Shown here piece by piece: positions 11,981 to 20,000 of a DNA stretch of 20,000 nucleotides (its first letter is position 1; every line of letters begins with the position of its first letter). Source of the DNA: an uncultured virus (IMG/VR IMGVR_UViG_2822507784_000003). Its lineage: Duplodnaviria; Heunggongvirae; Uroviricota; Caudoviricetes. The DNA is taken from positions 56,567 to 76,566 of IMG/VR virus record IMGVR_UViG_2822507784_000003. One strand, given 5' to 3'. Under the pieces are notes generated by a model. It made no database searches and had not been told where the DNA came from. It saw only the letters and a program-made list of their open reading frames with translations. A program made the position numbers and the translations under genes.

Positions 11981-12571
11981 ATGACGGACGAAATTGTTTA
12001 TTCTGCTAGTGAAGTATACAAGCGATTAGGAATAAGTGATAGCACCCTTAGAAAGTACATGGAAGTATTATCACGCGAAGGATTCGCAGTAAAGAAAGAT
12101 AATCGCGGCAGACGCCAATACACAGACAGTGACATTATGGTGATTGAGAAGTTAATTGAGCTAAGTAAGCATGACGGTATGACGCTAGAGAAGGCAGCGA
12201 AGATGATTGTGCAGCAAATAGAAAAAGTTAATCCGGATCTGATTCAAGAAGAGGCTGAGGAAACGGATCTAGTGCCATTCCACATTAAAGAGCAATTACA
12301 GGAACAGTACAGCGTTATGGCGCAAGAAATGAATCAAAGCATGCTAGCGATGGAGAAGCGATTAAGTGAGCAGGCCAAGCGAAGTAACGAGGAAATCAAA
12401 GCAAGTGTAGAATCGCATAATAAACGAGTGGAAAAACGATTGGAAGCACGAGACGAGACGCTTATGAAGACACTGCGTGAGATGCAGGAAACGAAGAGAA
12501 TGATGCAGGAATTTCGGGATGAGGTTGCTGCATCGAAAGAGAAGAAAAAGCCTTGGTGGCGGTTTTGGTGA
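11981..12571 (+). CDS. MerR-HTH / coiled-coil protein (DUF3967-type, RacA-like architecture)
   Basis: YSASEVYKRLGISDSTLRKY...GRRQYT MerR-type HTH, long coiled coil and C-terminal KKKPWWRFW. Confidence 0.8.
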   Translation: MTDEIVYSASEVYKRLGISDSTLRKYMEVLSREGFAVKKDNRGRRQYTDSDIMVIEKLIELSKHDGMTLEKAAKMIVQQIEKVNPDLIQEEAEETDLVPFHIKEQLQEQYSVMAQEMNQSMLAMEKRLSEQAKRSNEEIKASVESHNKRVEKRLEARDETLMKTLREMQETKRMMQEFRDEVAASKEKKKPWWRFW

Positions 12572-14762: not shown

Positions 14763-14791
14763 TTTTAACACTCCAGTTATTTATTTTTAAA

Positions 14792-14882
14792 ATTTCCCTA
14801 TATCCCTTTATAGAAATAGGGAAAAATAGAAATAGGGAAAAAGGGATATTTCTAACTATAGAAATAGGGATATTTCTATATC
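14792..14882. repeat. parS-like cluster 2 in the parA leader
   Basis: Multiple direct and inverted ~8-bp units (AAATAGGG / ATATAGAA / GGGATATT) between the parA promoter and start codon. Confidence 0.75.
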
Positions 14883-14891
14883 TTTAAAGAA

Positions 14892-14920
14892 ATTATAACA
14901 ATGATGTACGGTATATGCAA
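14892..14920 (-). promoter_or_regulatory. Sigma-A promoter of parA operon
   Basis: Minus strand TTGCAT-17 nt-TATAAT with extended TG. Confidence 0.75.
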
Positions 14921-15048
14921 TAGAATCATAGAGTTAGTAATTAATAATAAAAACGTTGATATCATAAGATTCTTTTGATGTATGAAGTAGAGGGAGTTAA
15001 GAAATAAATATGTAATTTCGTAGAGATGTTAGTAGATGCAAAAATAAC

Positions 15049-15136
15049 GAAAATAGGGAAATATAGATATAGGGAAAAGGGGAAATATCCCTATATCTAT
15101 AAGTGGAAATAGGGAAATAGGGAAATAGGGATATTT
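15049..15136. repeat. parS-like cluster 3
   Basis: Tandem GAAATAGG x3 at 15106-15129 plus further direct and inverted copies of the same unit. Confidence 0.75.
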
Positions 15137-15282
15137 TGAAAAAAGTGCGTAATCCAGCAGTTTACAAAGGATAAAGCTTGTTGTAACGTAGTACACAACA
15201 AGCATCATTCTACAAAACAAAACATAATTTGATATTTTATATAAACGAAGATCGATAAAACAATTGAATATGAACAGAAAAT

Positions 15283-15456
15283 AAAAAAGCCACTCCCATA
15301 TGCTATCGGCTACCAACCTTTAGCGGGAATGACTCAGTTCTAGTAATTGCTACCAACACTTACTAGACATAACCTGTAACCAAGCAGGACTTCGGTTTAA
15401 GTAGTGCACCAACACTATCCTTAAACAATTATGCCTTTCGACTAGGCTTATTTGAT
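15283..15456 (-). ncRNA. Putative ~175-nt antisense (copy-control) RNA with four UUGG-loop hairpins
   Basis: Hairpins at 15395-15426 (loop UUGGUG), 15373-15388 (CUUGGUUA), 15339-15367 (UUGGUAG) and 15288-15334 (UUGGUAG). The last pairs fully via G-U only on the minus strand and is followed by a U run. A promoter lies directly upstream. Confidence 0.75.
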
Positions 15457-15462
15457 ATACCC

Positions 15463-15491
15463 ATTTTATCTGTGATTGGGCTAAAATTCAA
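15463..15491 (-). promoter_or_regulatory. Sigma-A promoter for the antisense RNA
   Basis: Minus strand TTGAAT (15491-15486), 17 nt, TAAAAT (15468-15463). Confidence 0.75.
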
Positions 15492-15540
15492 CTAGTAAAT
15501 ACTAGATTTGATTATTTTGTAGTCTAAAAGATATATACCG

Positions 15541-15610
15541 GGCATCTCTAAACCTAGAAGTCTTGTGATGTACAGGCCATTTAGGAATTAGAGATGCCTT
15601 TTTGTTTTTT
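15541..15610 (+). terminator. Long terminator/attenuator-like hairpin
   Basis: GGCATCTCTAA-A-CCTAGA ... TTTAGG-AA-TTAGAGATGCC followed by TTTTTGTTTTTT. No ORF ends here. Confidence 0.65.
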
Positions 15611-15614
15611 GTTC

Positions 15615-16092
15615 GCGTGGAATTGCCTGATACCACGTAAATAAAAACTGATAAGCCGTAATTCCGTGCTGCTATACATATAGGGGGAACGTGTTACGGC
15701 GTGGCTAGCTGTTGGTCGTGCAGGGGGTACTGAGTTATACGCCTACAAAAACAGCACCCCTCATTGGATTCCTGTTCATCTGGTGAGGGAGGGCGAGAAC
15801 TTGCCCAGGGACGATTCTCTAAAAGGTTCGGGTGGTTATCGTTAGCATTACGGTGCTAGGGAGTGCATTCAGTTTGTCGTGTAGGGACGATATTACAAGG
15901 ACAAGCCATAGTGAAAGGATGTATGCGATGAAGATCGCTGAGTGAACAGGGTCTATACATACGGATACCTTATAAGTGACCGCATGGCGAAAACAAAGAC
16001 GCTTATCCATCTATTTTGATTGATTACTTTTTTTGTAGTCTGTCAAAGTAGGGGATAAATCTGCCTTCCAGCCGTATTCCTTAATCGTTCCC
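15615..16092 (+). ncRNA. Putative large structured RNA / RNA-primer-type replication region
   Basis: ORF-free on the plus strand, visibly GC-richer than its flanks, many stems favouring plus-strand G-U pairs (15758-15789, 15791-15806, 16003-16058), and long-range complementarities. Confidence 0.5.
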
Positions 16093-16521
16093 ACATGATA
16101 AAAACCCTCAAGACCTTTAGTCAACATTAAATTCGAAGAAATACTGAAAAATATGAGATTGTTTAAGTCCTAGGGGAATGAGTTACTTAGGTAGAGGAAT
16201 AAATAAGGGATTTACTACTTACTTGGTTAGAGGATAAGGGGACGAATGATTAAAATATGTCCTATTGCAGAATTTGGTTTTACATATCGGATATAGTACG
16301 TGAAATTAAACTTATATAATTTTAGTTTGATTGGTATATAGTGATATTCTAGCAGTTGATGAAAAAGCACGTTGAGAAGTGATGAAGTAAACAGAAAAAA
16401 TATTGTTAGAAGATGTAGTGATTAACCTCAGTAAACAAAAATTAACTTTTATTGTATATTTTGAAAATAGATATTAATTAAGGTAATCTTAATTTAAACT
16501 AATAAGGGGAGGGATATCATT

Positions 16522-17463
16522 GTGAAAGTATTTAAATTAACTACAGAAAGTCATGCTCTTTTAGATTTGAATGAACAGAGCTGGGAAACTACTATTGCTT
16601 ATTATGAGAAGGAAACTCATAAGAGAGCGCCCTATTATTGTGATCTAAAAAAGAAAACCAGATATTTTGCTGTTTGTCCTGGTTGTAATAATCCGGTTCA
16701 ATTAGTAAATTTGTATGTTAATAAGAAATTACCAGACAACGAAAAGAAGCAATCCCCACATGCTAAACATCAACCGCATTCAGTTATTGGAATAGCAACT
16801 TATTATCAAGAAAAGTACGATACCTGTGAATTGAGACAGAGAACACCCTTCAGTGATACTGAGAAAAGAACTGGAACGGATGTACCAAATGAAATATTGC
16901 AGCTCATACAACGATATCCAGACATCTTATATAAACATATACGAAAAATAATAGGTATCAATTTTTCTAGACGCGTATTTGAGCGCATGATTGATAATTT
17001 TCTTCGTGCAAATGGACATTGTTATAAGCGTATTAATAAATTTAATTTGCCGTATGCTTTTCTATATATGCAAAAAAGTACAAGAATTATTAATCAACAT
17101 ATTACAGAAGGTCATGCTTATCAAAAAGAAATAATTGATTGTATACAAAATAGTAAATATTTTACTGTATCTGATAATAAAATTACACCTATTAACCCGA
17201 AGGTTGATGGGTTTGTAGAAATTGATTTTTACTTAACAAAACATAAAATTACACCAATTAAAAATATGATTACTCTCTGTATTACTGAATCTAAGGGAGG
17301 GGAAGTTGATAGTTTATTAGAAAAGGAATTTCCAGTAAATGAATCTGATTATATAAATGATATCAACGAGGCGATGGACAATGGGGATAATGAAATGGAT
17401 AGTAATAAAGCTAGATCTCAATTGAGAGAGATGGTACTCAATTGCATTGAAAAAAATAATTGA
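16522..17463 (+). CDS. Hypothetical protein with CxxC...H/C putative zinc-binding N-terminus
   Basis: 313-aa ORF, GTG start, RBS GGGGAGG, upstream TTGAAA-17-TAATCT (16461-16489). Motif CPGCNNPV...PHAKH...C. Confidence 0.75.
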   Translation: MKVFKLTTESHALLDLNEQSWETTIAYYEKETHKRAPYYCDLKKKTRYFAVCPGCNNPVQLVNLYVNKKLPDNEKKQSPHAKHQPHSVIGIATYYQEKYDTCELRQRTPFSDTEKRTGTDVPNEILQLIQRYPDILYKHIRKIIGINFSRRVFERMIDNFLRANGHCYKRINKFNLPYAFLYMQKSTRIINQHITEGHAYQKEIIDCIQNSKYFTVSDNKITPINPKVDGFVEIDFYLTKHKITPIKNMITLCITESKGGEVDSLLEKEFPVNESDYINDINEAMDNGDNEMDSNKARSQLREMVLNCIEKNN

Positions 17464-19270: not shown

Positions 19271-19413
19271 GATTAGGAAGTGTCAATTTGTTAAATTTGT
19301 AATTTGAACCAATAAAAAACAATAAAAAACAATTATTGGCATGATGTGTGCTTGGATTTAAAATCCTCGCATCCTATTTATTAGGTAATATAAATGATAA
19401 GGAGGGATTCAAG

Positions 19414-19671
19414 ATGGAAATGTCAGAAAAGAAAGTTTTAGGTTTAACATCAGCTGCTATTCTAGGAACATTAGGTGTAGGTTTTCAGGCCATAGCTACT
19501 TTAGGAGTTTCTGAAGTAGTTGCAACGAATCTATACTATGCGCTTAATGTAATTGGATGGGGTGCAACTGCAGCTGCGATTGTTTCTTCAGCTGGACTGG
19601 GTGCTGTTGCAGCTCAAGCAATTTGGGCTGCTGTTAAGAAAAAAACTATACAGCAATTTGTTAAATGGTAA
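19414..19671 (+). CDS. Circular (class IIc, head-to-tail) bacteriocin-like precursor 1
   Basis: Start moved to ATG 19414 behind AGGAGG. 85 aa, Ala/Gly-rich hydrophobic core starting near 'IATLGVS', cationic patch VKKK and terminal Trp, as in uberolysin/amylocyclicin-type precursors. Confidence 0.75.
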   Translation: MEMSEKKVLGLTSAAILGTLGVGFQAIATLGVSEVVATNLYYALNVIGWGATAAAIVSSAGLGAVAAQAIWAAVKKKTIQQFVKW

Positions 19672-19712: not shown

Positions 19713-20000
19713 ATGGAAATGTCAGAAAAAAAGATTTTTAATGTAGAAATGTCAGAAAAGAAAGTTTTCGTTGCAACATCAGCTGCTATTCTAGGAACAT
19801 TGGGATTAGGCTATCAAGCTATGACTACTTTAGGTCTTTCTGCTACTGTTGCAGGTAATTTATATTTTGCACTTGATGTAATTGGATGGGGTGCAACTGC
19901 AGCTGCAATCATTTCTTCAGCTGGTATTGGTGGCGTTGCGGTACAAGCGGTTTGGGCAGCTGTTAAGAAGAAAACTTTTGCACAATTTAAGAAATGGTAA
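19713..20000 (+). CDS. Circular bacteriocin-like precursor 2 (paralog)
   Basis: 95 aa, closely similar to precursor 1 (ATSAAILGTLG, VIGWGATAAAI, WAAVKKKT...KW), with a duplicated EMSEKK in the leader. Confidence 0.75.
   Translation: MEMSEKKIFNVEMSEKKVFVATSAAILGTLGLGYQAMTTLGLSATVAGNLYFALDVIGWGATAAAIISSAGIGGVAVQAVWAAVKKKTFAQFKKW

Follow-up and report, generated by a model that had tools for sequence, protein, structure and literature searches.

In ColE1, a long non-coding transcript with a conserved fold, RNA II, runs toward the origin, and a shorter antisense RNA with three stem-loops, RNA I, is complementary to its 5' end. ColE1 replicates without an initiator of its own; RNase H processes the priming RNA, which Pol I then extends. 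In pT181 (RNAI/II), pIP501 (RNAIII) and the pAMβ1 family, a counter-transcript with YUNR-type loops overlaps a leader. Attenuation of the pT181/Inc18 type uses an intrinsic terminator upstream of the regulated product, which is a Rep open reading frame (ORF). In pAMβ1 the origin lies downstream and transcription through the origin is required. Here we describe an ORF-free module of about 1 kb at positions 15236-16240 (approximate limits) of a 20,000-nucleotide (nt) stretch of DNA. This stretch, referred to as the window, is the final 20 kb of a 76.6-kb provirus record of IMG/VR (IMGVR_UViG_2822507784_000003). Judged by gene content, the record is a phage-plasmid of the Bacillus cereus group. 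Window positions 15613-16060 encode a conserved, structured non-coding RNA of about 450 nt on the plus strand. This RNA is the core of what may be an antisense-controlled replication unit.

The module resembles ColE1 RNA II/RNA I in several respects. A predicted long non-coding transcript with a conserved fold would run toward a putative origin, and its 5' end is complementary to a shorter antisense RNA, likewise predicted, that has three stem-loops. The module has no internal rep ORF, and the transcript is G-rich with positive GC skew. In contrast to ColE1, the host is Gram-positive, and cmscan revealed no sequence or Rfam similarity to RNA I or to ColE1-type models. The fold with its two pseudoknots is far more complex, a convergent promoter is added at the 3' side, and a terminator stands between the antisense target and the body of the transcript, which implies attenuation rather than refolding. 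With pT181, pIP501 and the pAMβ1 family the locus has in common a predicted counter-transcript that overlaps the leader and exposes YUNR-type loops. The pT181/Inc18 attenuation systems also have an intrinsic terminator upstream of the regulated product, and at this locus the terminator is conserved as a structure. However, the product here would be a structured RNA of about 450 nt and not a Rep ORF, and no CopR-like repressor was identified at this locus.

Two groups of structured RNAs are also close. ARRPOF, GEBRO, PAGEV and the Bacillus-plasmid motif, which we take to be represented in Rfam, are ORF-free, structured and plasmid-borne like the present segment and lie near replication functions. 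ROOL and GOLLD are likewise hundreds of nt long, hold multiple pseudoknots, are found on mobile elements and have no known function. In contrast to both groups, the RNA described here has no Rfam match, and it differs from ROOL and GOLLD in having a dedicated antisense/attenuator unit and in its place at the plasmid maintenance locus. A cmscan search of the whole window against Rfam gave no match at the gathering score, and none was obtained with nine homologous or fragment loci. At E values up to 10, positions 15000-16700 gave 12 sub-threshold matches at chance level, none of them to a plasmid replication RNA. A preliminary description of this DNA, made from the single sequence, had likened the segment to ARRPOF, GEBRO and PAGEV; membership in these or other Rfam families is not supported by these searches.

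A conserved non-coding RNA on the plus strand

The segment lies 0.8-1.3 kb to the right of parA. Its GC content is 0.46-0.51, compared with 0.23-0.35 in the flanks, and its GC skew is positive. Only one ORF of at least 50 amino acids (aa) is present, which codes for 63 aa on the minus strand. The preliminary description had listed a number of complementary or repeated strings in this segment, and each of them was found in place: the hairpin 15758-15789 with loop CCTGTTCA (15771-15778), TGAACAGG (15943-15950), GATAAGC (15650), GCTTATC (16001), GCCGTA/TACGGC, GGGAACG/CGTTCCC, two copies of CTATACATA and the hairpin 16003-16058. Perfect complementary 6-, 7- and 8-mers within the single sequence numbered 29, 9 and 3, where shuffling gave 22.3, 5.0 and 1.4 on average. 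These counts were reached by 28, 20 and 43 of 200 dinucleotide shuffles and are not above chance. Therefore, comparative data must decide which pairings are real.

Alignment of homologues revealed strong covariation. RNAalifold with 11 diverse homologues resulted in 103 pairs, 41 of them with compensatory changes. A curated structure for 28 homologues has 112 pairs in 17 helices and is 97.1% paired, with changes on both sides at 55 pairs (219 cells). As a control, columns were shuffled, and none of 500 shuffles matched the curated structure on any of five measures. In further controls, the 3' partners were slid by 1-3 columns, which reduced pairing to 40-49% and left 7-19 doubly changed pairs. 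The strand could be read from the same alignment. Read as plus strand, 97.1% of pairs are canonical, compared with 84.3% when read as minus strand, and 396 cells on the plus strand are G·U, several of them invariant. Because of these G·U pairs the RNA was assigned to the plus strand. The z-score of the single-sequence fold was -3.27 on the plus and -1.47 on the minus strand. The large folded RNA with a pseudoknot that had been predicted from one sequence is thus borne out. For the core and this pseudoknot the pairings are conserved, and no match to an intron or to the remnant of an insertion sequence arose. A new structured RNA family with two covarying pseudoknots and without Rfam match is well supported by these data.

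That the segment instead codes for protein, either through the 63-aa ORF (15819..16010, minus strand, inside the core) or through the small toxin of a type I toxin-antitoxin locus, is hardly credible. The ORF does exist, blastp returns 'homologues' in four other carriers, and layouts with a convergent small RNA (sRNA) are known from type I toxin-antitoxin loci. However, the blastp matches arise because the RNA itself is conserved. The span of the ORF measures between 181 and 208 nt in homologues, the differences not being divisible by three, and many homologues have a disrupted frame; the longest open frame over this span stays below 55 codons (35-53) in 8 of the 28 homologues. The 63-aa ORF has no Pfam match and was judged not to be a gene. 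On the plus strand, ORFs of at least 20 aa differ in frame, start and length across the 28 homologues and none is conserved, be it ATG-initiated or, as expected for a type I toxin, small and hydrophobic. A conserved ORF was also not found within the core or directly 3' of it in these homologues. Substitutions follow base-pairing, not codons.

Helices and pseudoknots of the core RNA

The complex fold comprises about 15 helices and two pseudoknots, and many of its unpaired bases are invariant. The fold begins with a 5' hairpin at 15616..15637 (plus strand; CGTGG, loop AATTGCCTGATA, CCACG). This helix 1 is 99.3% paired and two of its five pairs are doubly changed, from C-G to A-U in three sequences and from G-C to C-G in one. 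A lineage-specific insertion hairpin, GCCGTA...TACGGC, follows at 15655..15700 (plus strand), as seen from the alignment and the pairing counts. It is missing in 10 of the 28 homologues. Where it is present, its helices 2-4 are 90-97% paired, and GCCGUA/UACGGC is replaced by AACGUA/UACGUU in two sequences. The central part is a conserved multi-helix domain at 15702..15955 (plus strand), which forms the blastn homology core and was the source of the covariance model R1. Its helices 5-15 are 96-100% paired, and the domain has many invariant unpaired bases, e.g. AAAGGUUCGG, AGGGA and GGACAAG.

Both pseudoknots are located in this domain, on the plus strand. The pairing of the loop of hairpin 15758-15789 with a distal strand, proposed earlier from the single sequence, was confirmed by covariation. 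In this pseudoknot 1, CCUGUUC (15771..15777) pairs with GAACAGG (15944..15950), and 7 of 7 pairs are formed in 28 of 28 sequences, with the same result in a recount of 23 sequences. Twelve of the 28 sequences have CCUAUUC:GAAUAGG and one has CCCAUUC:GAAUGGG. One pair is therefore G-C in 15 sequences, A-U in 12 and G-U in one, and another is U-A in 27 and C-G in one. Pseudoknot 2 is new here and was absent from the preliminary description. It pairs UAUCGU (15837..15842) with ACGAUA (15887..15892) in a hairpin loop, and its six pairs are 100% paired in 23 sequences. Variants are AGCCAU:GUGGCU in five sequences and UAUUGU:ACAAUA in one, with double changes at five of the six pairs. None of 500 shuffles equalled the paired percentage or the score of pseudoknot 2.

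Downstream of the domain, a long 3' hairpin (16003..16058, plus strand) has invariant arms (CUUAUC... and ...UAGGGGAUAA) and a U-rich apical loop. Its helices 16 and 17 are 95.9% and 87.7% paired, and 12 of 22 pairs are doubly changed. U·G pairs, which occur for example in 23 of 28 sequences at one position, again favour the plus strand. The hairpin is a candidate site of action, either as origin or as target of a convergent transcript. A possible DnaA box in its arms was dropped, as it matched the consensus at only 7 of 9 positions.

The preliminary description had also envisaged a switch, in which two long-range pairings (15650-15656 with 16001-16007, and 15685-15700 with 16071-16092) and local hairpins exclude each other. 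This explanation is very improbable. The complementary strings are there, and 92% and 82% of cells stay complementary among close relatives. However, in the pairing of GATAAGC with GCTTATC, 92% paired where both sides exist, not one pair is doubly changed, 500 of 500 shuffles equal it, and 10-11 of 28 sequences lack part of the 5' partner. The second pairing reaches 81.8% compared with 79.5% in shuffles, and many cells are broken (e.g. in L006 and L001). The 5' partners lie in the insert that 10 of 28 homologues lack, and matches of such lengths occur at chance frequency. In contrast, the local hairpin 15655-15700 covaries, being 97% paired with compensatory changes (helix 2). The repeat CTATACATA and the G-runs, which had been noted as well, are present, but the first copy of the repeat and the G-run at 15683 belong to the insert, and the G-run at 15723 is no conserved G-tract but pairs within a covarying helix (GG to AA on this side, CC to UU on the other). 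The only candidate for a switch that emerged is a different helix, 15826-15830 with 15943-15947, which competes with pseudoknot 1. This helix is 99% paired and does not covary, and a switch by this route is possible but unsupported.

Predicted control elements on both sides of the core

With blastn, homology in divergent plasmids extends from about 15267 to 16124, and in close relatives to about 16310. At the left side, a candidate promoter of the leader/core transcript was found at 15236..15264 (plus strand; TTTATA-17-AACAAT) with a predicted start at 15271-15275. In a promoter scan of the 28 homologues, seven divergent ones (L010, L001, L002, L007, L008, L009 and L043) have TTGATT-17/18-TAAAAT, with TAAGAT in L043, at the corresponding site, which lies 327-360 nt 5' of the core.

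Convergent to this promoter, an antisense sRNA gene is predicted at 15275..15491 (minus strand). Its promoter (TTGAAT-17-TAAAAT) is located at 15491..15463, and the product of about 180 nt would run from 15456 to 15275 and end at a terminator hairpin (15333..15289, minus strand) whose U-tract is complementary to 15288..15278. A promoter of the form TTGAAA-17-TAnAAT was seen by eye in all 11 sequences compared. The sRNA has three stem-loops with GUUGGU (YUNR-like) loops and folds with a z-score of -2.99, and its complementarity to the predicted plus-strand leader is complete over the first ~180 nt of the latter. In type-A homologues, the minus strand is the more stable one for the sRNA terminator hairpin in 13 of 15 and for the whole region in 14 of 15. 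The same strand is indicated by C·A on plus, which corresponds to G·U on minus. The antisense loops vary by lineage (ACCAAC, ACCACC, UGCACC, CUCAGC), as is expected of incompatibility determinants.

Between leader and core lies an intrinsic terminator (15541..15611, plus strand), with its stem at 15541-15598 and the T-tract at 15599-15611. A hairpin with a T-rich tail is kept in 11 of 11 sequences in spite of differing stems, and it is also seen in an upstream alignment of 20 homologues. A simple terminator scan did not list it, because its loop exceeds the limit of the scan. The element could act as a transcription attenuator. By eye and in the minimum free energy (MFE) fold, the A-rich 5' end of the leader (15272-15290) is also complementary to the U-tract and tail of this terminator (15596-15612), with apparent compensatory changes between lineages, e.g. 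AAAGAA with UUCUUU in L002. Such a pairing may close the structure over a long range or serve anti-termination.

At the right edge of the conserved block, a convergent promoter is present at 16095..16124 (minus strand; TTGACT-18-TATCAT, 10 of 12 matches). All 29 homologues compared have GTCAA in the same position, and 22 of them have CATGATAAAAA. The homology to divergent plasmids stops at 16124, the edge of this promoter. It would send leftward transcription from about 16088 into the 3' hairpin and the core. Further downstream are two iteron-like direct repeats (16183..16234, plus strand), TTACTTAGGTAGAGGA at 16183-16198 and TTACTTGGTTAGAGGA at 16219-16234. An alignment covering the 3' flanks of 19 homologues shows that in other lineages this place is taken by CTACCACTAACnnnGATAGAGGA, also in two copies.

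Distribution among plasmids, phages and chromosomes

Blastn revealed the element in 101 plasmid records, 83 of them at full length. Bacillus accounts for 98 and Peribacillus, Planococcus and Pseudalkalibacillus for one each. With a divergent member as query 116 plasmid records were found, and among the 60 matches listed none had an annotated feature under the match. One phage record carries the segment. A motif scan of IMG/VR returned 106 stretches. Eighty of these were fetched and analyzed with nhmmer, and 68 are true homologues; the other 12 are unrelated, with other motif spacings and mostly coding sequence. Of 105 species genomes of the family, 29 hold the module. The covariance model, applied to an even sample of the order, found it in 4 of 151 genomes, including one distant full-length match with 32.6 bits. 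An exact 22-mer scan of genome contigs gave two loci only, this pattern being too strict.

In the upstream alignment, a tyrosine integrase gene on the same strand replaces the leader and sRNA unit in 4 of 20 homologues. A fifth homologue (L046) also has a different upstream region, in which only an unassigned 108-aa ORF is present. Two of the four integrase cases are chromosomal and one of them adjoins spo0A. These two, L053:12611-14280 (G056 chromosome, the copy beside spo0A) and L054:12236-13825 (G034 chromosome), are integrative versions of the element with the order tyrosine integrase, core RNA, small HTH/MerR/HTH_36 genes and resolvase. They look like an integrating plasmid of the 7-kb type. 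Five other chromosomal loci (L044, L045, L047, L048 and L049) have only a core fragment of ~110 nt, equivalent to window positions 15873-15987, with 73-77% identity and no Rfam match. Three of the five are located at ~1.1-1.2 Mb of contig C1. At the one locus that was read, L044:1501-1596 (minus strand), the fragment lies directly past the terminator of a 168-aa gene. The fragments look like remnants or scars of former integrations.

Two further observations concern the carriers. In at least 11 of 40 plasmid records listed (e.g. H7, H9, H17, H23, H26, H31 and H35), the element lies no more than ~2.5 kb from one end of the record. This exceeds the expectation for 50-kb circles and may reflect the submitters' choice of origin or assembly breaks. 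A MerR-type regulator, often with a DUF3967 tail, recurs in otherwise unrelated carriers (window 11981-12571; L016:10881-11420; L015:720-992; L001:6666-7379; L054:11081-11908) and is missing from the 7-kb plasmids. The regulator may work together with the RNA module or contribute to stability.

A possible RNA-based replication or copy-control unit

The explanation that we consider most likely, though with no better than even odds, is that the module is an antisense-controlled replication or copy-control unit whose regulated product is an RNA and which works like ColE1 or pAMβ1. Several observations point to this function. Circular plasmids of 6.9-7.7 kb have no other long ORF-free stretch than the one with the module, and no other sequence is common to the carriers, which are otherwise unrelated by protein content. 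In an all-against-all blastp comparison, a resolvase was the only protein common to the 76.6-kb record and the 7-kb plasmids, and no protein was common to all carrier groups. Several carriers have no recognised Rep family. None was found by Pfam, NCBIfam or PHROGs in the maintenance region of the window and in the 7.7-kb plasmid L014, and none by NCBIfam among the seven ORFs scanned of the 13.9-kb plasmid L016, where PHROGs was applied to one ORF only and Pfam to none. In addition, a par locus adjoins the module, 770 nt separating the latter from parA in the window, and the antisense loops are lineage-specific. The comparison to ColE1 RNA II, made already in the preliminary description, is kept as the best reading of the context, at the level of inferred function.

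The mechanism that we propose has steps taken from the anatomy of the sequence (promoter, sRNA and terminator) and steps taken by analogy (the cis-acting RNA and the convergent promoter). The promoter near 15236-15264 would start a leader RNA, and the convergent sRNA would work as counter-transcript to its 5' part. Since the terminator sits between the antisense target and the core, the sRNA would set by attenuation the read-through into the core and hence the number of transcripts that reach it, as in the copy control of pT181 and pIP501/pAMβ1. The regulated product would be the structured RNA and not a rep ORF. It would fold co-transcriptionally. Acting in cis at the 3' hairpin (16003-16058) and the repeats (16183-16234) or just beyond them, it may supply host enzymes with a pre-primer or activate the origin for them, in the manner of ColE1 RNA II. 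The convergent promoter at 16124-16095 could provide a second antisense RNA or a transcriptional input at the 3' end.

A number of findings weigh against this proposal. Potential initiators are present near the module: a RepA_N protein in pLM5, a 422-aa protein with a DnaD-like PHROG match in pBAslCI14, HTH_36/DnaD_N proteins downstream of the module in L013, L043 and L053, a 144-aa protein of L016 with weak 'replication initiation' PHROG matches, a conserved protein of ~166 aa upstream of the module in the 7-kb plasmids, and a 'replication protein' named by PGAP at a distance of 4 kb in the Pseudalkalibacillus plasmid. Because each carrier group has such a protein nearby, independence of Rep is no more than a possibility. 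The phage-plasmid's own initiator and helicase loader might suffice for its replication. A fold with two pseudoknots goes beyond what known primer RNAs require, and the integrase cases demonstrate that the core can exist without the antisense unit and outside plasmids. In the lineage of the window the plus-strand promoter is weak (TTTAnA/TTTACA-17-AACAAT, with AACAAT as -10 element), and a generic promoter scan gave six sites where 8.2 are expected by chance, i.e. no excess. Cumulative GC skew over the 76.6-kb record tracks gene orientation without an origin signal. Contigs from RNA libraries do cover the region in four RNA-seq runs of four studies (e.g. an 844-nt contig over 15526-16307 and a 573-nt contig over 15465-16033), but they carry neither strand nor level and may result from DNA carry-over. 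One run (X4) covers the leader only, and parts left uncovered in a run carry no meaning. The transcript ends are predicted from the sequence.

Two other explanations have to be weighed on the same data. The core may be an 'ornate' non-coding RNA that mobile elements carry as an autonomous unit and that works outside replication, comparable to ROOL and GOLLD, for example a trans-acting regulator, an RNA scaffold or component of a ribonucleoprotein (RNP), a ribozyme or an anti-defence RNA, and the antisense unit would then merely set its level. We consider this doubtful, even though the very elaborate fold, the two pseudoknots and the long invariant unpaired stretches would suit such an RNA. The core also occurs without leader and antisense unit directly past integrase genes, including chromosomal ones, many viral contigs contain it (true homologues at 68 of 80 IMG/VR loci fetched, from 106 motif matches), and the phage-plasmid has replication genes of its own. 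In contrast, small plasmids without any recognised replication gene in common share the module and no other segment, and in phage-plasmids it lies beside the par locus. The constant frame of convergent promoter, 3' hairpin and direct repeats suggests action in cis, and antisense RNA plus terminator is the classical design of plasmid copy control.

Alternatively, the module could be a Rep-dependent origin or control region, for which each plasmid brings its own initiator (a RepA_N, DnaD-like or HTH_36 protein, the 166-aa protein or the phage replisome organiser). The RNA would then be a cis-regulatory leader or an element for origin transcription or primer processing, like the pAMβ1 repE-ori transcript. 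Winged-helix or initiator-like genes do adjoin the module in most carrier groups, upstream or downstream of it, the iteron-like direct repeats follow directly, and the downstream genes, which vary between carriers, have the strand of the RNA in the carriers examined. Nevertheless, we find this explanation unlikely. Origins normally co-evolve with their own initiator. Here the neighbouring proteins belong to unrelated families and differ in position and orientation, whereas the RNA module is constant. The only adjacent gene in the window codes for a 313-aa protein without Rep-like features, and a conserved ORF in or directly after the core is absent. For an iteron-type theta replicon, too, two repeats are present, but no protein family co-occurs with the module across carriers.

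More broadly, and tentatively, the antisense-controlled unit could represent a Gram-positive replicon family of small plasmids, phage-plasmids and integrative elements, in which a double-pseudoknotted 'RNA initiator' under antisense control licenses replication in cis by host enzymes; this generalisation, which possibly also covers the mechanism behind ori1030, seems to us possible rather than probable. The replicon ori1030/pHT1030 of B. thuringiensis, the basis of pHT304, pHT315 and pBS0E, is a lead and may be the same replicon. E. coli records, in which shuttle vectors might be contained, gave no match. In passages of three papers that mention ori1030, it is only cited or serves as vector origin (PMC13001229, PMC5678133, PMC10101014). 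A paper on a megaplasmid minireplicon (PMC5550751) had no bearing on the module. Six motifs of the window were searched in paper texts with unrelated matches only, and the literature texts that could be searched contained no description of the RNA or its motifs. If ori1030 is the same replicon, the double-pseudoknot RNA and its antisense/attenuator anatomy appear to be undescribed in these texts.

If the module is a replicon, RNA-primed and possibly Rep-free replication would extend from enterobacterial ColE1 to the Firmicutes, by means of an RNA that is unrelated and far more elaborate. [quoted passage not shown] In every record opened, PLSDB/MOB-suite typing gave no replicon or relaxase type and only the label 'non-mobilizable'. 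A widely used Bacillus vector origin and its copy-number variants might also be explained, provided that the link to ori1030 holds. Whatever its function, the RNA is suited for structure determination and for RNA family databases.

The phage-plasmid and the genes around the module

Upstream of the window, the record contains genes for AimR, a Sak annealing protein, a phage replisome organiser, a DnaC-like loader, RecU, terminase and portal. Within the window are genes for a tail protein, a PlyG-type amidase, a Y-family polymerase, an FtsK-like ATPase, the MerR/DUF3967 regulator and ParA with small partner proteins. This type of phage-plasmid fits the 'Group 8' plasmid prophages as presented in passages of Piligrimova et al. 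2021 (PMC8026635). The group is listed there with ParA, an RHH protein and phage replication genes, and the passages concerned (PMC6669507, PMC8026635) do not mention a non-coding module. The replisome-organiser and DnaC-like genes are ~40 kb away from the module, which itself lies near parA. Therefore, the separation of plasmid and lytic modules resembles a P1-like layout. The phage replisome-organiser ORF (L018:8715-9842; G000 28715-29842) also holds an HNH endonuclease domain (Phage_rep_org_N + HNH).

The stretch between parA and the module (14780-15270) is AT-rich, with positive GC skew of up to 0.53 and repeated ATAGGGAAA-like units, and contains a spurious low-complexity ORF of 95 aa. 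It may be a candidate partition centromere. On the other side, the 313-aa protein (16522-17463, plus strand) has a CxxC motif and no Pfam, NCBIfam or PHROG match. Hypothetical proteins, for the most part of Pseudomonadota, are its neighbours in a protein atlas, with no more than a faint lead to CoiA_N, and the gene may be an accessory or defence gene. Toward the end of the window, two tandem paralogous genes (19348-19671 and 19713-20000, plus strand; ~81% nucleotide identity) code for small hydrophobic Gly/Ala-rich proteins with KKW-like tails. The first of these proteins has no Pfam match. Both proteins are reminiscent of circular-bacteriocin precursors.

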